Below, piece after piece: positions 1 through 14,101 of a stretch of DNA of 64,000 nucleotides; the first letter of the stretch is position 1, and each line of letters begins with the position of its first letter. Source of the stretch: Acholeplasmatales bacterium (GTDB lineage: Bacteria; Bacillota_I; Bacilli_A; Acholeplasmatales; Anaeroplasmataceae); the NCBI GenBank assembly GCA_024698125.1, contig JAILRQ010000014.1, forward strand, positions 2,679-66,678, given 5' to 3'. A program made the translations under genes and the position numbers. The notes under the pieces are model-generated. The model searched no databases. It was given only the letters and a program-made list of their open reading frames with translations, and had not been told where the DNA came from.

Positions 1-542
1 TCATCAAGCCTATATTCCATATCTAGATAAGGCTTTGCATATTTCATAGGATTATTAAATATTTCGCATAGTCTCTTACCATCACTTGGATCAAATAGAT
101 TAAAGTGAAGCTCTACCTCAACAGAGTCCATTTTATATCCTATATGATGAGCACAATCCTCAAGGTCATCCTCATGAAGGCCATTTTCCTCAAATACCTT
201 ACGAGCTCTTGTGAAATCATCAAGTGTAACATACACATCAATATCTCCACGAGTTCTTACTGCACTATCTGGATACATCTTTGATATTAAGGTACCCTTA
301 ACATAAAGGTGCTTAATACCATTCTTATTTAAAATATTTGTCACATGATCCTTAACCTTACAATACTTCTCATCACTTACAGCACCAGATATATAATATT
401 TCTTATATTTTGAATCATTTGTTATAGGATAAAGTATGGTTAAAAGGGATTGCTCATCTGCAATCCTTATTAAATCATTATCTAATTCAGAATCTATTTT
501 ATCGCCTAATACATAGGCTGATACAAGATTTGAAAAATCCAT
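1..542 (-). CDS. nucleotidyltransferase family protein (NTP_transf_5/PF14907-like); C-terminus runs off the window
   Basis: Absent from the ORF track because it is truncated. Hand translation from ATG at 542-540 gives MDFSNLVSAYVLGDKIDSELDNDLIRIADEQ...KGTLISKMYPDSAVRTRGDIDVYVTLDDF...HFNLFDP, open to position 1. It has a GDIDxxV acidic nucleotidyltransferase-type motif. The start lies 1 nt after the ABC stop (TAG T ATG). Confidence 0.6.
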   Translation of the reverse strand, partial: MDFSNLVSAYVLGDKIDSELDNDLIRIADEQSLLTILYPITNDSKYKKYYISGAVSDEKYCKVKDHVTNILNKNGIKHLYVKGTLISKMYPDSAVRTRGDIDVYVTLDDFTRARKVFEENGLHEDDLEDCAHHIGYKMDSVEVELHFNLFDPSDGKRLCEIFNNPMKYAKPYLDMEYRLD

Positions 543-543
543 A

Positions 544-2142
544 CTATTCCTCCTTTAAAGAAATATTTCCTTCTCCTTCAATTACTGAATCTCTATGAGA
601 AATATAAATTATAGTCTTACCTAAAGTGTGAAGATTATTCATAATTGCTATCTCATTATCCTTATCAAGAGCTGATGTAGGCTCATCTAGGATTATAATA
701 GGTCTATTTGAAGCTATTGCGATAGCTATCATAATACGCTGTATTTGACCCATTGAAAGTCCTGCACCCTTATCTCTTAATACTGTATTAATTCCATCAG
801 GCATTTCAACAATTTCATCATATATTGAAGCCTTCCTTAAGGCTTCATTTATTTGATTTATATCACTAACATTTGAAAATAGCTTAAAGTTATCATAAAT
901 ACTTCCACTAAATAAAATGTTTTCCTGTGATACATAGGCTATAAGGCCTCTTGTCTTAAATGATGCCTCATAAGAGGCTCCATCAAAGTCAAATGTAACC
1001 TTACCACTTTGTGGCTTATTAAAACCTAAAATAAGGCTTAAAACTGTTGATTTACCAATTCCTGAAGGACCAGATATTCTTACAATATCTCCCTTACCTA
1101 TTGTATATGATAGGTCATGTACTACATTTGGTCTATCATCATATGAGTATGATACATTATCAATTACAATTCTTTCAAAATCATTAATCATATCCTTATC
1201 CATAGCCTCAGGCATCTTATAGATTTCACTAATACGCTCAAGTGAAGCCTTACCCTTGTTATATCTATTTATAAGTGGTGAAATCATAACAAAAGGATTG
1301 TAGATATTATTTAGGATTGCAAGTAAGGCTACAAGTGATCCATAGGATATCTTATTCTTTGAGATAAGATAGGCTCCAAGTGTAATCATAAATACATAAA
1401 GTATTGATGACATAGCACCCATTATAGAGCTTGATGTATAGCTCCATTTATTACGATTAGATCTACTCTTATAGGCCTTATAATTAAGCTCTCTATAATA
1501 GGCTCTAGCATTATCATAGGCATTATAGCTTTGAATAAGCTTAGCCTCATCTATTGTTTCAATCACAAATGATGAAGCCTTAGAATCTAGGGCTAATACC
1601 TCCTTATGCTTTGGCTTCATTATACGAGAATAAAGCTTTGCGATAAGTGCCATTAGTATTCCGGCCACAAGTACAACTCCAAGGAAGTATTTAGCACCAC
1701 CTATAATTATAAGTAGCGCTATTGCAAGCAATGCTCTTGCAATAGAACGTACGATACCTGGAATTGCATCAAGATATGCCTCACATATATTATCAACATC
1801 ACCTATAAATAGAGCTTCTATTTCTCCTCTATGATATTTATTTAAGGTATTGATGTCCTTATAAATAAGGCTATCATATAATGACTCTCTTAAATCCTTC
1901 TGCATCCTTAAATCAAACCTTGAGAATGTTAGATTATAAGCAAATCTTCCAACTATTGTAAGAATTCCAAAAATAATCATTAGGATTAAATATTTATTAA
2001 ACTCACTATATCCTACACTACTATCCTTAATAATCTCTTCTGCACAGTCTACTAAGTATTTTGCAAGATATGGAAGTATTAGTAGGACTATCGCATTAAC
2101 GCATGCGATAAAGGAAAGTATTATTGTATATTTCTTTTTCAT
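544..2142 (-). CDS. ABC transporter, fused permease/ATP-binding protein (exporter type, no N-terminal C39 peptidase domain)
   Basis: 532 aa. N-terminal half has multiple TM helices. Walker A GPSGIGKST, signature LSMGQIQR, Walker B IIILDEPTSALD. ATGA overlap with the upstream peptidase gene. Confidence 0.9.
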   Translation of the reverse strand: MKKKYTIILSFIACVNAIVLLILPYLAKYLVDCAEEIIKDSSVGYSEFNKYLILMIIFGILTIVGRFAYNLTFSRFDLRMQKDLRESLYDSLIYKDINTLNKYHRGEIEALFIGDVDNICEAYLDAIPGIVRSIARALLAIALLIIIGGAKYFLGVVLVAGILMALIAKLYSRIMKPKHKEVLALDSKASSFVIETIDEAKLIQSYNAYDNARAYYRELNYKAYKSRSNRNKWSYTSSSIMGAMSSILYVFMITLGAYLISKNKISYGSLVALLAILNNIYNPFVMISPLINRYNKGKASLERISEIYKMPEAMDKDMINDFERIVIDNVSYSYDDRPNVVHDLSYTIGKGDIVRISGPSGIGKSTVLSLILGFNKPQSGKVTFDFDGASYEASFKTRGLIAYVSQENILFSGSIYDNFKLFSNVSDINQINEALRKASIYDEIVEMPDGINTVLRDKGAGLSMGQIQRIMIAIAIASNRPIIILDEPTSALDKDNEIAIMNNLHTLGKTIIYISHRDSVIEGEGNISLKEE

Positions 2143-2567
2143 TTACACACCCTACTAAAGATTAATCTTAAAAAGCTAATTCGTACTAATAGCTTATATA
2201 TCTTATATCTAAAAGATTTAAGATTATATTCCTTATCCTTTCCTTTTTTCTTATATGATGTAAGAATTCCAATTATGGAATTCATATCAATATTCTTTTC
2301 TACCTTGTATTGGTGATCTCCAACACAATAAAATATATTCTTCTTTCTTTTAATTCTTCTTACTCTATGTAAGATGAATTGACCATTAGGTCTTTTATAT
2401 AATAAAATATCACCCTTTTTTAAAGGTTTATTTAAGGCTTCAATAGTTACTAAATCTCCTGTATGAAGCATAGGGCACATAGATACTCCCTTATTAGGAA
2501 ATGAAAAAGCCTTACCAGATTGTAAGGTTTCTTTAATAAGAGGCTCCATATCCTCCATTTTAATCAT
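2139..2567 (-). CDS. S24/S26-family (signal peptidase I / LexA-like) serine peptidase, small stand-alone form
   Basis: 142 aa. GVSMCPMLHTGD matches the Ser-nucleophile motif (G-x-S-M-x-P). GDILLYKR and LHRVRRI resemble S26 boxes. SD AGAGGAA lies 6 nt upstream of the ATG. Confidence 0.6.
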   Translation of the reverse strand: MIKMEDMEPLIKETLQSGKAFSFPNKGVSMCPMLHTGDLVTIEALNKPLKKGDILLYKRPNGQFILHRVRRIKRKKNIFYCVGDHQYKVEKNIDMNSIIGILTSYKKKGKDKEYNLKSFRYKIYKLLVRISFLRLIFSRVCK

Positions 2568-2826
2568 TGTAGATTCCTCTTTTTCTTAATTCTTCTACAA
2601 AGTCTAATACATCCTCTCTTAATGTATCCTCATTAACATCGTATTCCTTTAATAAAGAAGAGACTGTCTCATCAATAGACTTACCCTTTTCAAGGCATGT
2701 AAAAATATCTGCACCAACCTCGTTTATGTTAAATATTTTGTTCATAACTACGTTAGAATTAGTTGTAGGAATTATCATATATTCCTTACCAACCTTCTTT
2801 AAGAAAAATCCTTTATTTATTCCCAT
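2560..2826 (-). CDS. PqqD-family peptide chaperone (RRE-type)
   Basis: The tail SIDETVSSLLKEYDVNEDTLREDVLDFVEELRKRGI is typical of PqqD (PF05402). I prefer the ATG at 2826 (MGINKGFF, SD AGAGGGA) over the TTG at 2868 used in the track. Confidence 0.7.
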   Translation of the reverse strand: MGINKGFFLKKVGKEYMIIPTTNSNVVMNKIFNINEVGADIFTCLEKGKSIDETVSSLLKEYDVNEDTLREDVLDFVEELRKRGIYND

Positions 2827-2924
2827 AATCTTTATTCCCTCTATACAATTTGATATTTCATATAACAAGTTATATGTAGCTAATTATATTTTAGCACAAA
2901 AGATAGAATATATAAATAACGGCC

Positions 2925-2950
2925 TAAAAAAAAGAGATTATAAAATCTCT
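2925..2950 (-). terminator. rho-independent terminator/attenuator immediately after the 40-aa peptide ORF
   Basis: Minus strand reads agagatt-ttat-aatctct followed by eight T. The hairpin starts 6 nt after the peptide stop codon. Confidence 0.7.
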
Positions 2951-2955
2951 ATTTT

Positions 2956-3078
2956 TTATCCTCCGATAATATCATCGCTATTATTAACATCAAATGTATC
3001 ACCATTAGGTGAGGCAGCGATTACATCTTCAATCTCTATTGCTTCATCTATAATGATTGGCTTTTTGTATTCCTTCAT
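2956..3078 (-). CDS. unannotated 40-aa acidic peptide, candidate RiPP precursor or exported peptide
   Basis: Hand translation: MKEYKKPIIIDEAIEIEDVIAASPNGDTFDVNNSDDIIGG*. SD AAGAGG lies about 8 nt upstream. It fills the gap between the secreted-protein stop (3090) and the terminator. It is too short for the ORF track. Confidence 0.55.
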   Translation of the reverse strand: MKEYKKPIIIDEAIEIEDVIAASPNGDTFDVNNSDDIIGG

Positions 3079-3089
3079 TATTATGCCTC

Positions 3090-4148
3090 TTATGCTTGAT
3101 AATTAAATGTATATGATGAAGATTGAGATAAGTCAGTTGTTACACCATCAATTTCAGCATTGAAATCTACAGTAACACTTAGACCATCATAGTCTTCACA
3201 ATTCTTAATCTTTATAGAATAAGCTATATAATAAGTGTCCTCTTGTGCCTCATATCCAGCTATAACTTTACCATTATAAGTAACATAGTTAACTAATGAC
3301 TTATTAATAGTTGATGTATATGTAGTACCATCTGCATAAGTTAGGGTACGAGTACATGTTGTAGCTACAGAATCCTTATCTGTAACATTGTTTAATGTAT
3401 ATACAAAATATACTAGCTTAAAATTAGAATCGTTATATACACAATCCATTGAATCTGCTGACACAGTCTCATTAACCTCAATGTTATCTACATTTGAAGC
3501 AGTTAAATCATCAGTATTTTGGGCATCACCAGAATAGATTCCATAAATATATGAAGTAATTCCTGGAACACCAATATGATAAGTTCCTGCAGCTAAGGCG
3601 TATACAAGTCTATATAAGGTATTCTTTACTAAAGCAGCTGCTGTTGAATAGTTATTTAAAACTGTATATGTAGAATCTGAATCATACTCAACCTCTGAAA
3701 CTGTAAATCCTGAATCTCCATCCTTTGATACTGATGTATAGAACTCAAGATTCATTGGCTTAGATAATGTAAACTCTAAATAATTAGTTCCATACTTCTT
3801 TGTAGTATTAAGATTATATGAACCAAGCTTTATAGCATAATCGAATAAAGAAGTTCCATAGCTATATTCCTTCTTATTCTTTTCTACTTGTGCTTCCTTA
3901 CCTGTTGAGTAAATTGTACCATCGATAGAATCTCCTGCTGATAATGTATAGCTAGAGCTACTGCTCTTTGCGTTTAAAGTATTTGTTGTAGAAGATGTTG
4001 CAAGCTCGCAAATCTCCTCTTGTGTTAATGTAGTCGCTTCTGATGTTTGATCCTCATCAGCTGCATTAACAGTCTTAGTGTTAAGCCCAAAAATTGAGAA
4101 GCTTAAGATTGCTGCTGTGGCAGCAACAAAAAATCCAATCTTTTTCAT
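3090..4148 (-). CDS. secreted protein of unknown function (signal peptide, beta-rich)
   Basis: MKKIGFFVAATAAILSFSIFGLNTKTVNA/ADED is a Sec signal. No domain confidently recognised, though LAAGTYHIGV looks PPC/beta-sandwich-like. The ATG at 4148 has SD AAGGA; the track start at 4175 has none. Confidence 0.6.
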   Translation of the reverse strand: MKKIGFFVAATAAILSFSIFGLNTKTVNAADEDQTSEATTLTQEEICELATSSTTNTLNAKSSSSSYTLSAGDSIDGTIYSTGKEAQVEKNKKEYSYGTSLFDYAIKLGSYNLNTTKKYGTNYLEFTLSKPMNLEFYTSVSKDGDSGFTVSEVEYDSDSTYTVLNNYSTAAALVKNTLYRLVYALAAGTYHIGVPGITSYIYGIYSGDAQNTDDLTASNVDNIEVNETVSADSMDCVYNDSNFKLVYFVYTLNNVTDKDSVATTCTRTLTYADGTTYTSTINKSLVNYVTYNGKVIAGYEAQEDTYYIAYSIKIKNCEDYDGLSVTVDFNAEIDGVTTDLSQSSSYTFNYQA

Positions 4149-4242
4149 GTTCAGTTTATATCCTTTTCTCTTCAATATGATAATGTTTTATAGCTCTTAA
4201 TTGGGGTTACAAAGCCCAATTGGCAAACACTATCTATAATAC

Positions 4243-4270
4243 ATTATATTTACTTTTTGAGGCTTGTCAA
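4243..4270 (-). promoter_or_regulatory. near-consensus sigma-A promoter (TTGACA-16-TATAAT) for the secreted-protein/peptide operon
   Basis: Minus strand reads ttgaca agcctcaaaaagtaaa tataat, about 95 nt upstream of the ATG at 4148. Confidence 0.6.
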
Positions 4271-4370
4271 CATTTTTTTGGCGATTTTGTGTATTTTCGA
4301 CCTTTTTTTACATATTTTAGGACAAATTCATACAAATTTAGGCTAAATTGTTCTAATAATCTTTAAATAC

Positions 4371-4400
4371 AAAATAAAAGTGTCGAATAAATATCGACAC
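4371..4400 (-). terminator. rho-independent terminator after the DUF308-like gene
   Basis: gtgtcga-7 nt loop-tcgacac, followed on the minus strand by ttttatttt. Confidence 0.65.
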
Positions 4401-4413
4401 TTTTACGAATTAT

Positions 4414-4983
4414 TTACTTTTCTTTAATTTCAGCATCTATTGCGTCACTATGAGGGTTGTTCTTCTTTTCCTCTTCATTAATAAGCTTAGCCTCAGCCAT
4501 AGAATATAGGATATCTACAACTCCGTTAAATACAAGAATTGCTCCAAGGATATAATACAAAACACTCTTATCAAGGAATAATAGGATTCCTGCTGTAAAG
4601 TATAATACTGCTTCTACAATAAGTATAATCTTTATTTGCTTTGGTAGTGCATCCATTATAGATAATAGCTTTAATACTCCATAGCACATTAATAGAACTC
4701 CTACTATAATTCTTATTGCTGCCGCAAATGCTCCAGCAAACACAATTATTAAAGCTCCAATAAGTATTAGTGCTACATCAAACACTGTAGCTTGATTATT
4801 GTTAGATTTCATATCACCTATAATATTTATAGCTGCCATTACTACAACAATAATACCTAATGCTAATGCTGCCCATCTTATAACCTCACCCTTGAATATC
4901 ATGATTAATACTCCCATGATAATATCAAGTAATGGTGCTAGATATAATTCTGTCTTACTCTTTTTAATTTTCATTTTTATCAC
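4414..4983 (-). CDS. small multi-pass membrane protein (HdeD/DUF308-like)
   Basis: 189 aa with about six hydrophobic helices and repeated G-x-x-x-I/V-x-G patterns. The family call is weak. Confidence 0.4.
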   Translation of the reverse strand: MIKMKIKKSKTELYLAPLLDIIMGVLIMIFKGEVIRWAALALGIIVVVMAAINIIGDMKSNNNQATVFDVALILIGALIIVFAGAFAAAIRIIVGVLLMCYGVLKLLSIMDALPKQIKIILIVEAVLYFTAGILLFLDKSVLYYILGAILVFNGVVDILYSMAEAKLINEEEKKNNPHSDAIDAEIKEK

Positions 4984-5030
4984 CTAATCCATTATATCAT
5001 AATTTAATCTTTTGTAAAATATAGAGAAAA

Positions 5031-5054
5031 GGTGGCTATAAAAGTATAGTCACC
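5031..5054 (-). terminator. terminator hairpin downstream of the patatin-like gene
   Basis: ggtgactata-cttt-tatagccacc on the minus strand, followed by ttttctct. Confidence 0.5.
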
Positions 5055-5221
5055 TTTCCCTAAAAAACCAAATATTTTCTTTCTTCTCCACTGAACCCAA
5101 CTTAATTATACAATATAGATATTTCCTTTTCAAGAATTATCATAGACGAATTTATAAAATGTGGTAAGAAAATACTACATATTTATAATAATTTTCGAAA
5201 AATGGTATAATCCTACTTATA

Positions 5222-6206: not shown

Positions 6207-9152
6207 TCAATTCTCTTCCTTAGCTGTAGCTTTTGTTTCATCCTTAACATCATTTATTTTAAGTTTAGGATCAAATCCATTATTTATTTCAAGCTTACCA
6301 TTCTTTATAAGATCAATTACAACGGTTGCGATAATTGGATCAAGCTGAGTTCCCTTAGCTTTCTCAAACTCTTGAATAATCTTTTCCTTTGTATAAGGCT
6401 CCTTATAGGATCTACGTGTAGCCATAGCATCAAAGGCATCACAGCAGGCGATAATACGTGCTGTATATGGAATATCTGTTCCACTTAATCCTTCAGGATA
6501 TCCCTTACCATCATATCTTTCATGGTGATATTTAGCACCATCTGCGATATTTGGAATTGTTGTAATTCCTTTTAATATCTTTCCACCCTTAGCCGCATGT
6601 GTCTTTATGATTTCATATTCCTCATCTGTAAGACGTCCTGGCTTGTTTAGGATTTCAAGTGGGATTGCAATTTTACCAATATCATGTAGTAGAGCAATAT
6701 AATATATATTATCTACCTCATCCTTGGATAATCCAAGCTCTGTTGCGATAATCTTTGCGTACTGACCAACTCTTGATGAGTGACCATTAGTGTACTCATC
6801 CTTCGCGTCAATTGTACGAGCAATCGCCTCCATAGCTTCAATTGTAATTTGCTTATACTCAAGCTCTCTTTTCTTTAAGGCATTTGTCCTTCTCTTAATA
6901 ATTAAAACATTTCCAAGAGCTAATACTGTAGCTCCAAGTATAATCATTAATACCCAGAATAGTGGCTGCTCATAAAAATGCTTAGCCTTAATAATGGTAA
7001 TACTTATAGTATTATATCCTTCAGTACCATCACTAGATACTACCTTAAATGTAAATGTATATTCTCCACCATCAAGGTTAGTATATGTAATTTCATTAGA
7101 ATCATTAGATCTTAATGGCTGCCAATTATCATCAACACCATCAAGCTTATACATTGCAGTATAATTTGATCCAACCTTATATGATAATACAGAGATAGAG
7201 ATTACTAAACGCTTTGCATCCTTAGACATCTTAATAGTATCTCCTGATACTCTAGTACCATCAACATTGATTGAATCAACACCAAGCTTTATTGGTGTTG
7301 TTTTAGAAGCTGTTGAATCTAATTGGTATAGATATACTCCTGAGCTTCCTGCAAAATAATAGGAATTGCTATCTGTATCATAATATCCAGACGCATTAGC
7401 AACAAGGCTTGATTTAAGACCATTTGATGTACCTATTTCCTCATAGTCTACAAAATCTCCAAAGATATCTGTTGTAAGCTTATATACCTCATAATCTGTA
7501 CCAATATAGTATGTATTGTTGATATAAAGTATTTCAACAATTGTACCACTAAACTTAGCATTAACTGTATGAATGCCATTACCATCATAATAATATAATG
7601 TAGAGGCATCACTATAGAATAATACTCCATCGACACATAAAACCTTTAATGATGGGTGATTATTCTCATCTATTCTTGTTTGTGTCTCAAGATCCTCAGA
7701 TATAATAACAACTCCAATATTTTCCATACAAGAGTAAATTACACCATCATTAACATATAAGTATAATGGTCTTGCATCTAAGGCCTTAGATGTAAATGTA
7801 TTACCATCATATTTTGTAATTCCATAGTTCGTACCTATTAGTAGGTAATCAGCTGTTACCGCAAGACATCTAAGCTGACCTGCAGATGCTGATGCACTTC
7901 CATCCTCTGTAAGGTAGGTAGAATCATAATATGTTATATTTGTTCCATCCCATACTATTAAATCATAATCACTACCATAGGTTGCGATATATAGCTTATT
8001 ATTAAATACTGCTAAATCTCTAAGTCTTACATCAAGTAGTATGGCTGTTAAATCATTTTCAACAATTTCTGATGTTTCCTCATTTACAACTGCAAGACCA
8101 TTACCAGTAGCTATATATGTAAGACCATTATATTTTGTAATAGCATTTACAGTATATGATCCACCTGTAATTCCATTACTTGTAAACCAAGCTGATACCT
8201 GATATTCATAGAAATAATCCATTAGCTCATTTTCAGTAATCTTTGAAACTCCTGTCTCAGATGAGCAAATCCAAAGTGTTCCCTCATAATCAAAGAATAG
8301 GGATTCAATAGATTTAGAGCATTCAAGCTTATCAGCAATCTCCTCTACAGTGGTAAAATCATAATAATATAACCCATTATCTGTTGCGATATATAAAGCA
8401 CCCTTATAATAGAAAATATCATTTATTGAATATCCATCACAGATTTCAATATCCTTTGTTTTGTTTATAATTAAATGTCCGTTATTAGACCCAATATAGA
8501 CATTAGATCCTACTACTGTAATACACTTTGCAGGTTTTTCCAAAGAATCATAATAAGCACTAGAGGCTGATGCGTTGTTATATATAACATTATCCTTTGT
8601 AATATAGTAGAATGTTTCTATTGTTGAACCAACTCCAAGATCAATTGACTCAGTTGAAGCTGATGAGAATGAATTACAAATACTACATTCTCCATTTATT
8701 CTATTGTACTTATAGGTTCCCATTGATGTAGCAAATACTACATAAGAACCTACTGTATCAATATCATATACACTAAACTCACTATTAAGTAGCTCTATTT
8801 TAGTATATTCTGAACCATCATATTTAATTAAGCCCTTCTGTGTTCCAATATAAAGCTCATCATCAACAGCTGCCAAGGTTTGACATCCTGTAAGCTCTAT
8901 ATTATTATCTGTAACATCTAAGCAATCAAATGATTTACCATTATATCTTGTAAGCCCTACATATTGTGCAATCCAAATATATCCATCATTAGTTTGAACA
9001 ATATCATTAGCGATTATAGATGATAATCCATCCTCCTGACCATAATTAGTTTCTGTTTTATCAGACATGTATGAATAGGCGTAGGAGTTTTTTGCTATGA
9101 ATAATACACAGGCTACAAGGACTATTAATAAAACCTTTTTTACCCTCTTCAT
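6207..9152 (-). CDS. membrane sensor HD-GYP phosphodiesterase (signal peptide, beta-propeller/Y_Y_Y extracellular domain, TM, HD-GYP)
   Basis: 981 aa. Repetitive propeller-like region. YKLDGVDDNWQPL...GEYTFTFKV matches the Y_Y_Y domain. TM helix FWVLMIILGATVLALGNVLII. LLHDIGK and HHERYDGKGYP are HD-GYP motifs. Confidence 0.85.
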   Translation of the reverse strand: MKRVKKVLLIVLVACVLFIAKNSYAYSYMSDKTETNYGQEDGLSSIIANDIVQTNDGYIWIAQYVGLTRYNGKSFDCLDVTDNNIELTGCQTLAAVDDELYIGTQKGLIKYDGSEYTKIELLNSEFSVYDIDTVGSYVVFATSMGTYKYNRINGECSICNSFSSASTESIDLGVGSTIETFYYITKDNVIYNNASASSAYYDSLEKPAKCITVVGSNVYIGSNNGHLIINKTKDIEICDGYSINDIFYYKGALYIATDNGLYYYDFTTVEEIADKLECSKSIESLFFDYEGTLWICSSETGVSKITENELMDYFYEYQVSAWFTSNGITGGSYTVNAITKYNGLTYIATGNGLAVVNEETSEIVENDLTAILLDVRLRDLAVFNNKLYIATYGSDYDLIVWDGTNITYYDSTYLTEDGSASASAGQLRCLAVTADYLLIGTNYGITKYDGNTFTSKALDARPLYLYVNDGVIYSCMENIGVVIISEDLETQTRIDENNHPSLKVLCVDGVLFYSDASTLYYYDGNGIHTVNAKFSGTIVEILYINNTYYIGTDYEVYKLTTDIFGDFVDYEEIGTSNGLKSSLVANASGYYDTDSNSYYFAGSSGVYLYQLDSTASKTTPIKLGVDSINVDGTRVSGDTIKMSKDAKRLVISISVLSYKVGSNYTAMYKLDGVDDNWQPLRSNDSNEITYTNLDGGEYTFTFKVVSSDGTEGYNTISITIIKAKHFYEQPLFWVLMIILGATVLALGNVLIIKRRTNALKKRELEYKQITIEAMEAIARTIDAKDEYTNGHSSRVGQYAKIIATELGLSKDEVDNIYYIALLHDIGKIAIPLEILNKPGRLTDEEYEIIKTHAAKGGKILKGITTIPNIADGAKYHHERYDGKGYPEGLSGTDIPYTARIIACCDAFDAMATRRSYKEPYTKEKIIQEFEKAKGTQLDPIIATVVIDLIKNGKLEINNGFDPKLKINDVKDETKATAKEEN

Positions 9153-9170: not shown

Positions 9171-10211
9171 CTATTTCTTTAGACTATCAATATAGAGTGC
9201 CATAGACATAATATTAGCAAGATTCTCTAATAATACTAAGTCCTCATTCTGCCAAATACGTCCTGTATCAACCGATACCATATCCGCTCTTAGTATTCCA
9301 AACACCTTGCCATAAGCCCTTAGAATACAAATAAACTCTGCATATATTCCCTGCTCTACAAAGCTCTTATAAAGCTTTGATTCTAAATGCTTAGATCCAA
9401 TTACTGTATTTTCATAGAATACTCCATTATCAGATACATATTCTACTACTGACTCTACTCCAAATGGAGCATATACTCTATCCTTAAATAAAGGCTGGAA
9501 GTATTCATGCCTTAATCCATCCTTATCCTCAATACATAAATGATCTATTAAAAGATATGGTCCCACAAAATCTATTGCCTGCTTAATATTTTCATCAACG
9601 CTTCTCTTTTCATTGGTTAAAATATTAAAAATCTTAGCATGTAGATGAATTGGTGAATAAACCTTTTCTCTGAATGTTTGAAGAGCAATATTTGCATGCT
9701 TCTCTGGTAGATAGATTATAAAGCAATTTCTTCCCTTTACCTTACCTCTATATAAAGCCTTATCAGCTAATGTAAATAGCTCATCAATATTTGTTGTGTT
9801 CTCTGGGAAGCGAGAGCATCCCATAGTATATGAAATATTGATTGAGCTTTCACTAAACTCAAGTCTTGTTCCAGATTTTAATACTCTAAATAATATTTTC
9901 CAGACAGTATCATAATCTACAAGATATGGGAAAACAAAGATGAACTCATCTCCACCATATCTTCCGACAAACCCTTTACCATCTGTCTCCTTTTGCAATG
10001 ACTTAGCAACAATCTTTAGGACCTCATCTCCCATTTGATGTCCATAATTATCGTTTACAAGCTTAAAATTATCGATATCTAGAATAGCAAATGTAAAAGG
10101 TACATTTTGCTCAATTAGATGCTCGGCATAAAACATAATGGCATCTCTTCTAAATATTCTAGTAAGCTCATCTGGGTCTGCATGTAGTTGTTCAAAAAAC
10201 TCATTAGTCAT
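9171..10211 (-). CDS. GGDEF-domain diguanylate cyclase with C-terminal GAF-like domain
   Basis: DIDNFKLVNDNYGHQMGD and RYGGDEFIFVF (intact GGDEF). It ends 18 nt upstream of the HD-GYP sensor gene. Confidence 0.85.
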   Translation of the reverse strand: MTNEFFEQLHADPDELTRIFRRDAIMFYAEHLIEQNVPFTFAILDIDNFKLVNDNYGHQMGDEVLKIVAKSLQKETDGKGFVGRYGGDEFIFVFPYLVDYDTVWKILFRVLKSGTRLEFSESSINISYTMGCSRFPENTTNIDELFTLADKALYRGKVKGRNCFIIYLPEKHANIALQTFREKVYSPIHLHAKIFNILTNEKRSVDENIKQAIDFVGPYLLIDHLCIEDKDGLRHEYFQPLFKDRVYAPFGVESVVEYVSDNGVFYENTVIGSKHLESKLYKSFVEQGIYAEFICILRAYGKVFGILRADMVSVDTGRIWQNEDLVLLENLANIMSMALYIDSLKK

Positions 10212-13392: not shown

Positions 13393-14101
13393 ATTTTATT
13401 AAATCCTTTATAACCTCAGATGCAATTAAAAGACCACATGATGCAGGAACCCATGCATTTGAACCAGGTAGTGCTCTTCTTACTCCCTTATCCTCATCTA
13501 TAGATGTAGAGTCTACTGCTATTGGCTTTTCAGTAGAATATACTACCTTTAGCTTTTTAACTCCTCTTTTTCTAAGCTCATATCTCATAACACGAGCTAA
13601 AGGGTCTGTATCTGTTTTATAGATATCACAAGCCTTAAAGGCCTGTGGGTCTAGCTTATTTCCAGCTCCCATAGATGAAATAACATTAATACCTGCCTCC
13701 TCTGCCTTTAATATTATTTCTATTTTGGCAGTGACTGTGTCTACACAGTCTATGGCATAATCATATTTTTTAAAATCAAAGATATTACTATTTTCAGGAA
13801 GTAGGAAGGTATTATATACCTCAACTGTGGCATTAGGATTAATAGATAATATTCTTTTCTTACAAGCATCAACCTTTGGCATACCAATACTATCGTGGGT
13901 TGCGATTATCTGACGATTTATGTTTGTTAGAGATACTTTGTCATTATCTACAAGAACAAAGTGTCCTACACCAGTTCTTGCAAGGGCCTCACATACATAC
14001 CCTCCAACGCCACCAACTCCAAAGATAGCTACAGTCTTATTATTTAGTTTTTCTATATTATCCTCACCAAGCAGTAAGGCTGTTCTTTGAAATTGATTCA
14101 T
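13391..14101 (-). CDS. tcdA: tRNA threonylcarbamoyladenosine dehydratase (ThiF/E1-like)
   Basis: IFGVGGVGGYVCEALARTGVGHFVLVDNDKVSLTNINRQ is the Rossmann/E1 motif. 236 aa. Confidence 0.8.
   Translation of the reverse strand: MNQFQRTALLLGEDNIEKLNNKTVAIFGVGGVGGYVCEALARTGVGHFVLVDNDKVSLTNINRQIIATHDSIGMPKVDACKKRILSINPNATVEVYNTFLLPENSNIFDFKKYDYAIDCVDTVTAKIEIILKAEEAGINVISSMGAGNKLDPQAFKACDIYKTDTDPLARVMRYELRKRGVKKLKVVYSTEKPIAVDSTSIDEDKGVRRALPGSNAWVPASCGLLIASEVIKDLIK

Follow-up and report, generated by a model that had tools for sequence, protein, structure and literature searches.

A probable lpp-type peptide cluster lacking its kinase gene in an uncultured Anaeroplasmataceae-like bacterium

The 64-kb stretch of DNA analysed here (from contig JAILRQ010000014.1 of an Acholeplasmatales bacterium; hereafter the window) begins with an operon of six genes, all on the minus strand, which probably constitutes an lpp-type cluster for a ribosomally made, post-translationally modified peptide (RiPP) that has lost its kinase gene, lppK. 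Gene calling placed open reading frames (ORFs) of 352, 40, 88, 142 and 532 amino acids (aa) on this strand, and one more that runs off the window. A first-pass annotation, made from the sequence alone, had described six genes, three junctions, a promoter and a hairpin, and all of them were found in place. The features of the locus are as follows (RRE, RiPP recognition element).

4243..4270, minus strand: promoter P1 (TTGACA-16-TATAAT), a 12/12 match to the consensus, predicted to drive the secreted-protein gene and lppA
4149..4242, minus strand: conserved 5′ leader of the P1 transcript, with invariant blocks in a four-species alignment
3090..4148 (from ATG), minus strand: secreted-protein gene, 352 aa, directly upstream of lppA and co-transcribed with it
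2956..3078, minus strand: lppA, an ORF with a GAGG ribosome-binding site, encoding the 40-aa precursor MKEYKKPIIIDEAIEIEDVIAASPNGDTFDVNNSDDIIGG
2925..2958, minus strand: hairpin following lppA, with A and U runs on its flanks, a predicted intrinsic terminator or attenuator
2888..2916, minus strand: internal promoter P2, an extended −10 element (TTGTGCTAAAAT) found by promoter scan, with TG before the −10, predicted to drive lppB-S-D-N
2560..2826, minus strand: lppB, 88 aa, PqqD-like RRE
2139..2567, minus strand: lppS, 142 aa, SipW/archaeal-type signal-peptidase-I-like leader peptidase
544..2142, minus strand: lppD, 532 aa, MsbA-like half-size ABC exporter
1..542, minus strand: lppN, first 180 of 355 codons in the window, PF14907 nucleotidyltransferase

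The genes following the hairpin are tightly packed. As read from the sequence, lppB and lppS overlap by 8 nt, an ATGA overlap comes next, and the last junction is TAG-T-ATG. A geneless spacer of 129 nt separates lppA from lppB. P1 is the sole perfect consensus promoter in the 64 kb (0.16 expected by chance), and both of its hexamers are invariant across four species. The sequence of P2, TTTTGTGCTAAAATATA, is identical in L015, the counterpart locus of metagenome-assembled genome (MAG) UBA3206, and the near-identical TTGTGATAAAATATAAT lies upstream of lppK in the related locus L007. The hairpin had been called a strong terminator; the hairpin itself is well founded (−14.8 kcal/mol, z = −3.1), and its stem and T-run are kept in L015, while “strong” was somewhat generous for an AT-rich element that a simple terminator scan missed.

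Linear Polyphosphorylated Peptides (LPPs) were defined by Popov et al. (Nat Commun 2026; PMC13381572, May 2026) from one heterologously expressed cluster, lppAKBSDN. Its genes encode a precursor (LppA), an HprK-like kinase (LppK), an RRE (LppB), a leader peptidase resembling signal peptidase I (SpI; LppS), an MsbA-like exporter (LppD) and a nucleoside triphosphate (NTP) transferase (LppN). LppK puts several phosphates on Ser3 of the core. The leader is removed only in the presence of LppB, by LppS with the catalytic residues S29, H68 and D93, and the substitutions S29A and H68A abolish cleavage. The products were shown to be linear, and that study left the final product and its role unsettled (PMC13381572). 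Among 47 SpI neighbourhoods listed in the paper's co-occurrence table, 46 have at least one HprK kinase (PMC13381572).

The product of lppB matches PqqD (PF05402; E = 3e-16), and its best NCBIfam match is lasso_PqqD_Bac, below cutoff. In the LppB-LppA crystal structure, LppB residues N33 and D70 hydrogen-bond the Pro kink and the Tyr of the leader (PMC13381572); these align with N35 and D72 of the window protein. Both the family match and these two residues bear out its initial description as an RRE. Among PDB entries it matches TbiB1 (1.4e-5), PbaB1 (6.8e-4) and LppB (0.13). A weak PqqD-like tblastn match elsewhere in the window, at 13559-13714, lies inside a ThiF-like gene and was discarded as spurious.

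The lppS product scores 24.2 bits against Peptidase_S24 (cutoff 23.3). Its best NCBIfam matches are archaeal-type signal peptidase I (sigpep_I_arch) and SipW, the SipW model NF046067 giving 25.8 bits against a cutoff of 190, and its profile matches SEC11A/C in the PDB. The motifs GxSMxP (S29), LHR (H67) and GD (D84) are invariant among 13 homologues. The protein is 33% identical to Paenibacillus alginolyticus LppS (WP_029196374.1; E = 1e-15), with the catalytic Ser and His aligned. No transmembrane segment was found in it: the maximum of a 19-residue Kyte-Doolittle scan is 1.31, reached only in the amphipathic C-terminal tail. The initial remark that an S24/S26 enzyme occurs here instead of a B2 protease has thus held up, and this enzyme is the leader peptidase taking the place of lasso B2.

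The exporter LppD is composed of ABC_membrane and ABC_tran domains. Profile searches found no C39 peptidase domain in its 532 aa, as had been proposed, and NCBIfam exporter families match only from the transmembrane domain onward. LppN belongs to NTP_transf_5 (PF14907), with E = 1.5e-18 for the part in the window and 3.4e-26 for the full-length protein. Residues G83, D100 and D102 (nucleotidyltransferase motif GS...DxD) as well as H132, E144 and H146 are invariant in 10 homologues. A literature search on PF14907 returned only an unrelated phosphonate paper. The characterised LppN homologue PsmN is needed for the addition of hexose onto the kinase-installed phosphates of pseudomycoidin.

The short ORF, lppA, had been suggested to encode a genuine precursor, which its conservation in homologous clusters confirms: orthologous peptides are present in every Anaeroplasmataceae-type locus long enough to show one. 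Its leader, MKEYKKPIIIDEAIEIED, bears a YxxPxI motif and is followed by the core VIAASPNGDTFDVNNSDDIIGG. Among 11 orthologues the leader is kept, while the C-terminus is hypervariable and the cores cannot be aligned. The leader consensus across Anaeroplasmataceae-type orthologues is MKKxYxKPxIxxExIEIEDxIxxS, and all 13 precursors that were aligned, two canonical LppA included, have Y4 and P7. Cores of the kinase-less clade (PNGDTFDVNNSDDIIGG, PGDSYDVFDDAEEPPKP, PGGQTDLDDEDFKIGD and PDFDDIGDFDEGLN) are all acidic and differ even between close strains. The first-pass annotation had noted that the peptide ends in GG. The residues are real; however, they are not conserved in orthologous peptides, and a double-glycine export signal was therefore rejected.

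Cleavage by LppS can be placed by homology. MAFFT matched I14-E-I16-E17-D18 of the window peptide to I-x-F-E-T of canonical LppA, with a spacer one residue shorter. The published consensus Px9Fx[T/A] does not describe the window leader, which reads P7-x8-I16-E17-D18, with the first conserved Ser at +5 from D18. This residue, Ser23, is conserved in both kinase-less and kinase-bearing relatives. By homology to the F-E-T site, LppS most likely cuts after D18, which would leave the core VIAASPNGDTFDVNNSDDIIGG with Ser at +5; a cut at the conserved small-x-small junction A-A-S23 appears less likely. Possible unmodified cores are VIAASPNGDTFDVNNSDDIIGG or SPNGDTFDVNNSDDIIGG.

The impression that a core-modifying enzyme is absent was right for the window, and its relatives identify the gene that has gone. 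S24 homologues of about 60% identity sit in syntenic loci, which have in common the upstream genes Flavin_Reduct, GGDEF, Patatin and DUF308 and the downstream genes Cytidylate_kin2, GNAT and Veg. In the syntenic relatives L007 (6964-7755), L009 and L017, the short ORF and the PqqD gene are separated by an extra 263-aa gene. Its product belongs to PF27840 (ScmC), has ScmC and HprK-related kinases as its best NCBIfam matches, and contains the P-loop APSGTGKST. The order in these loci is secreted protein, peptide, HprK-like ScmC/LppK, PqqD, S24, ABC and PF14907; from the peptide onward it is exactly the published lppAKBSDN, whereas the window and its sister species have A-B-S-D-N.

A scan of one genome per species gave 28 loci with S24 relatives. 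HprK-like, PqqD and S24 genes cluster in 23 of these, nearly all in the same order, with the ABC exporter and PF14907 genes also present in Anaeroplasmataceae-type MAGs and in Halobacillus; a metagenome scan added only four further loci. The kinase gene is absent from the window, from L015 (84% identical peptidase) and from the metagenome contigs L043-L045, which are of the L015 type. No ScmC/HprK-like sequence was found in the 64 kb of the window or in contig L001 (26 kb), which encodes the identical exporter. Since the window and L015 are both kinase-less, loss of the gene most parsimoniously predates their split. A search for the scar of the lppK deletion by cheap-gap alignment was uninformative, the alignment scattering in AT-rich sequence; by eye, GTTATATGAAA downstream of P2 matches the region where lppK starts in L007, a weak indication.

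The genes that remain show the signature of purifying selection. Between the window and L015, both of them kinase-less, the approximate ratio of nonsynonymous to synonymous substitution rates (dN/dS) is 0.10 for lppB, 0.17 for lppS, 0.15 for lppD, 0.23 for lppN and 0.09-0.17 for flanking genes; dS is about 0.5-1.8. Every reading frame is uninterrupted in the two species and in several strains.

The sequence beyond position 1 was checked in other assemblies. Among assembled contigs, seven carry the gene for an ABC protein identical to that of the window, and the longest of them, L001 (26 kb), passes position 1. There lppN (L001:11537-12604) ends after 355 aa and is followed by genes for Cytidylate_kin2, GNAT, Veg, a 278-aa protein, an EAL protein and a large beta-helix surface protein. 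The first-pass annotation had allowed that the cluster might continue beyond the window; instead, genes of housekeeping type follow lppN, and no lasso cyclase, B2, radical S-adenosylmethionine (SAM) or YcaO gene is among those beyond position 1 in L001.

The Cytidylate_kin2 (PF13189) gene, at L001:12663-13316, encodes a P-loop protein and starts 58 nt after lppN, with no terminator between them. The first terminator-like hairpin lies directly after it. This gene could be co-transcribed with lppBSDN, although the extended −10 element TGTTATAAT also precedes it. Species share 85-92% identity in its product, a far higher conservation than that of the lpp genes. We judged it unlikely to be a replacement kinase: it occurs in kinase-bearing relatives too, other lpp loci do not have it, and its conservation resembles that of a housekeeping gene.

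Genes of cyclic-di-GMP signalling flank the cluster in all syntenic species. On one side there are genes for a Y_Y_Y sensor of 981 aa whose HD domain is of the HD-GYP type (6207-9152, minus strand) and a GGDEF protein (about 9171-10211, minus strand), and on the other (L001:15864-17771) genes for the EAL protein and the 1307-aa beta-helix surface protein. Such neighbours hint that the setting is one of biofilms or surfaces, in place of the capsule loci of Bacilli.

We consider it probable that the locus is an lpp-type RiPP cluster of an uncultured Anaeroplasmataceae-like bacterium that has lost lppK and yet is functional. The promoters and the hairpin would divide expression in two: P1 would transcribe the secreted protein and the 40-aa LppA, with the hairpin ending most transcripts, and the extended −10 of P2 would drive the translationally coupled lppB-S-D-N genes. 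The following steps are modelled on the published lpp system. LppB would bind the leader through Y4-x-x-P7, as the conserved Asn35 and Asp72 and the LppB-LppA crystal structure suggest, and would hand it to LppS, a soluble serine peptidase of the SipW/Sec11 type (Ser29, His67), which would cut most likely after I-E-I-E-D18. The MsbA-like LppD would then export an acidic core of 17-22 residues. Without a cluster kinase the product is probably not polyphosphorylated. LppN, whose motif is intact and which is under purifying selection, would either modify the peptide directly or depend on a kinase encoded elsewhere.

Several observations weigh against this interpretation. The examined region spans about 75 kb around the cluster, and a kinase elsewhere in the genome is possible. 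With dS near saturation, the dN/dS values are approximate. The Px8IxD leader misfits the published Px9Fx[T/A], which makes the cleavage site uncertain, and in sequence the window RRE stands no nearer to LppB (E = 0.13) than it does to TbiB1 and PbaB1, which are lasso B1 proteins. PsmN, the sole homologue for which an effect was demonstrated, needs a phosphorylated peptide to act on. Finally, in the characterised system deletion of the kinase left almost no processed peptide, and LppN activity was undetected in the heterologous host (PMC13381572). Given this dependence of LPP processing on the kinase, and that of PsmN on phosphate, there is as yet no mechanistic explanation for a pathway that keeps LppN but has no kinase.

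One tentative way to account for it is that the cluster is a kinase-independent offshoot of the LPP family, in which the unphosphorylated precursor is cleaved by the SipW-like peptidase under guidance of the RRE and exported, LppN acts on a peptide hydroxyl and not on a phosphate put there by a kinase, and the peptide works together with the secreted beta-sandwich protein. LppN may in that case, for example, O-nucleotidylylate Ser23 or add a sugar-phosphate to it.

It is also conceivable, though in our view unlikely, that an ordinary LPP pathway operates here with a kinase acting in trans, an HprK-like or other enzyme phosphorylating Ser23 and LppN decorating the phosphate. The conservation of Ser23 with and without the kinase gene would fit this, as would the retention of LppN, whose only characterised homologue needs a phospho-substrate. 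Moreover, P. alginolyticus LppS handles the unphosphorylated precursor poorly in vivo (PMC13381572), and candidate enzymes are at hand: HprK-like ScmC genes are very common in Anaeroplasmataceae (792 matches), and the P-loop Cytidylate_kin2 gene follows lppN without a terminator. However, the latter looks like a syntenic neighbour, and the window and L001 yielded no ScmC-like sequence. The closest non-identical LppK in the protein collection (P0027, 53% identity) belongs to its own K-B cluster in a different lineage, and all kinase-bearing loci examined encode the kinase within the cluster, directly upstream of lppB.

Loss of lppK might instead have inactivated the pathway, leaving the other genes on the way to pseudogenisation. 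The class-defining enzyme is indeed gone, and its deletion nearly abolishes the product in the model system. Such decay is nevertheless improbable, as none of the five genes that remain is disrupted in two species and several strains, with dN/dS of 0.10-0.23 over a dS of about 1, like the flanking genes. The catalytic residues are invariant, both promoters and the leader peptide are kept, and from strain to strain the cores diverge in the manner of active RiPP loci.

Two further explanations carry very little weight. The SipW-like peptidase could be a dedicated signal peptidase of the 352-aa protein, as SipW is for TasA/TapA, with the short ORF incidental; its SipW/Sec11 type and the constant proximity of a secreted-protein gene would agree with this, but the idea is most improbable for an enzyme that has no membrane anchor, is translationally coupled to an RRE and has a homologue that cleaves LppA only with LppB (PMC13381572). 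In addition, the leader of the short ORF is strongly conserved, and where the pair relocates, the secreted protein stays beside the peptide gene and not the peptidase gene. A split lasso system, with the cyclase and perhaps B2 encoded elsewhere, is scarcely credible: the YxxP leader is lasso-like, the best PDB match of the RRE is a lasso B1, core Asp positions could close a ring of 7-9 residues, and LPP and lasso clusters often co-occur in Bacilli (PMC13381572), yet no cyclase or B2 is recorded in six Anaeroplasmataceae loci with precomputed Pfam calls, and the architecture fits LPPs, whose products proved linear (PMC13381572).

The gene preceding lppA encodes a protein whose N-terminus resembles a signal peptide, being hydrophobic (maximum of 2.14 at residues 4-22 in the 19-residue Kyte-Doolittle scan) and followed by VNA|A. 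Profile searches with the 352-aa sequence gave no Pfam or NCBIfam family match, and only 10 relatives were found among 5.8 billion proteins. An AlphaFold2 model built from 10 sequences has a mean predicted local distance difference test score (pLDDT) of 51, and only its C-terminal beta-sandwich (about residues 228-352) is confident. Comparison of this model with the PDB by Foldseek was uninformative, returning generic beta-sandwich domains with TM-scores ≤ 0.2.

In every case lppA comes second in a two-gene pair; the first gene encodes a beta-rich protein of 350-565 aa that bears a signal peptide and has no Pfam family. The pair is located upstream of the enzymes in the window group (2956-4148) and downstream of lppN in L018 (5444-7313), L020 (8195-10035), L021 (3509-5275) and L050 (12558-14355). 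A small gene for a low-complexity, lipoprotein-like product comes next in all four downstream arrangements. Profile-profile comparison (hhalign) of the 352/372-aa family with the proteins of about 560 aa that precede lppA in other lineages gave E = 0.0075 and a probability of 5%; the two are collinear over 186 C-terminal columns and have the AGTYxxG motif in common, which weakly suggests homology. The recurrent pairing of precursor and secreted protein could point to the long-missing biological role of LPPs.

The P1 transcript begins with a conserved 5′ leader, the core of which, TTGGGCTTTGTAACCCCAA at 4201-4219, occurs once in the window. The invariant blocks of this 5′ untranslated region are TAGATAGT, TTGG(G/A)CTTTGTAACCCCAA and, near the start codon, ATTGAAGAGAAAAGGAT. 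They are unchanged across four species despite a coding dS of about 1 or more, the counterparts lying at L015:6300-6400, L007:5540-5640 and L009:5525-5625. An Rfam search of positions 1-5200 gave no match at E ≤ 1, which places the leader outside described RNA families, and its predicted fold is not significant against shuffled sequences (z = −1.4). The element could serve as an operator, or it could be a regulatory RNA that is so far undescribed.

The survey also revealed reduced and rearranged versions of the module. Christensenellaceae/Clostridia MAGs (L023-L027 and L031-L034, at about 7000-8450) contain a bare set of HprK-like, PqqD and S24 genes, which follows a conserved block of housekeeping genes with comEC, holA, a DAC-domain protein, a polysaccharide deacetylase and an SSB-like gene; no exporter, PF14907 gene or YxxP peptide was found near these bare modules. 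In Clostridia-type loci (L012:7732-8462, L013, L014 and L028:1517-2250) the PqqD and S24-like genes form a pair alone, without kinase, exporter or nucleotidyltransferase genes, and in L012-L014 this pair is located directly downstream of enolase.

Acholeplasmatales-type loci L049 (8001-11073) and L051 (8001-11912) have the order K-B-S-D; a PF14907 gene is not recognisable there, and within 8 kb of these clusters no YxxP peptide was found. The cluster is followed by PFOR in L049 and by a 287-aa Pfam-less gene in L051. As these loci lack PF14907 and the window clade lacks the kinase, both are dispensable, in different lineages.

Two tandem modules are present in Halobacillus litoralis SL-4 (L038:2006-13304). 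The first consists of HprK-like, PqqD, PF14907 and ABC genes. The second encodes a canonical LppA (MKKVYEAPKVLDHRPIKFETSQSWNKG...), which fits the published Px9Fx[T/A] consensus, and HprK-like, PqqD, S24, ABC and PF14907 proteins. Metallophosphatase and LytR-CpsA-Psr genes come next, and the locus fits the published link to cell-envelope polysaccharide loci.

LppS-like peptidases are far commoner than the 126-member network of the published study: at E ≤ 1e-10, an exhaustive profile search gave 3,242 representatives of clusters formed at 50% identity, almost all of which are 135-170 aa long and matched over their full length. Fusions exist as well, with LppS-like domains inside longer proteins of 264-708 aa (P0168, P0187, P0195, P0230 and P0278). 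In a Deltaproteobacteria MAG (L039:127-3613) and in L040 (66-1599), S24-like and ScmC-like genes adjoin a radical SAM gene and genes for SAM-dependent methyltransferases, an arrangement suggesting that cassettes of the SynChlorMet type outside Bacillota make use of SipW-like leader peptidases too.

A kinase-less cluster under purifying selection amounts to a ready-made genetic experiment. Either the RRE, peptidase, exporter and PF14907 enzyme work without cluster-encoded phosphorylation, or the kinase comes from elsewhere. If the kinase-independent reading is true, the locus would represent the first kinase-independent activity of LppN/PsmN type and the first functional partner of an LPP. The survey extends the LPP family to gut Anaeroplasmataceae and to Christensenellaceae, and adds a second leader consensus.

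The SynChlorMet cassette (ScmC HprK-like, ScmD PqqD-like, ScmE/F radical SAM-SPASM; TIGR04248-04251) was among the known systems compared. The kinase of the relatives matches ScmC (PF27840/TIGR04249) and the window RRE weakly matches ScmD, but the scores (24.6 vs 125 bits for ScmC and 18.4 vs 100 bits for ScmD) are far under the trusted cutoffs, and no radical SAM/SPASM genes were found in the cluster or its flanks. With SipW-TasA/TapA of Bacillus subtilis the window shares a Ser/His peptidase of the Sec11-like subfamily, encoded beside a dedicated substrate gene. SipW, however, is anchored in the membrane and cuts Sec signal peptides outside it, whereas the window enzyme is anchor-less and RRE-coupled and is predicted to act on a cytoplasmic leader.

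Lasso clusters of the paeninodin/pseudomycoidin type in Bacillota (A, C, B1, B2, D, K, N) have in common with the window an RRE that recognises [Y/W]xxP, an ABC exporter and a PF14907 protein; their HprK-like kinase also occurs in the relatives of the window. In contrast to them, the window has no cyclase and no B2, a serine peptidase replaces the latter, and the product is expected to be linear. No Asn-synthetase-like cyclase or transglutaminase-like B2 is recorded within about 10 kb on either side in L001, L007, L009 and L049-L051, or among the scanned window proteins.

The closest system is the lpp cluster of P. alginolyticus DSM5050. Like the window, it has a discrete YxxP-binding RRE coupled to an anchor-less archaeal-type peptidase, then an MsbA-like exporter and a PF14907 NTP-transferase in the same order, no macrolactam cyclase, and a precursor with a conserved N-terminus and a hypervariable C-terminus. 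The window differs in lacking lppK and in its leader, YxKPxIxDExIEIEDxIxxS (Px8IxD), as against the published YxxPxVLxHQxIxFETxxS (Px9FxT), which is cleaved after T-1 and has the phospho-acceptor Ser at +3 (PMC13381572). Its cores are short and acidic, while the published ones are long and rich in Gly, Asn, Pro and Lys; its LppS and LppB are 33% and 25% identical to their counterparts. The window cluster also lies outside a capsule locus, its precursor is co-transcribed with a secreted Pfam-less protein, and its host, an Anaeroplasmataceae-like gut bacterium, belongs to a group absent from the published lpp dataset. The first-pass annotation had proposed a new minimal RiPP or peptide-export class. 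A RiPP-type operon it is, but with the LPP family already published it is not a new class; it is a member of a known and widespread family, to which it contributes new details: loss of the kinase with retained selection, an alternative leader consensus and the pairing of the precursor with a secreted protein.

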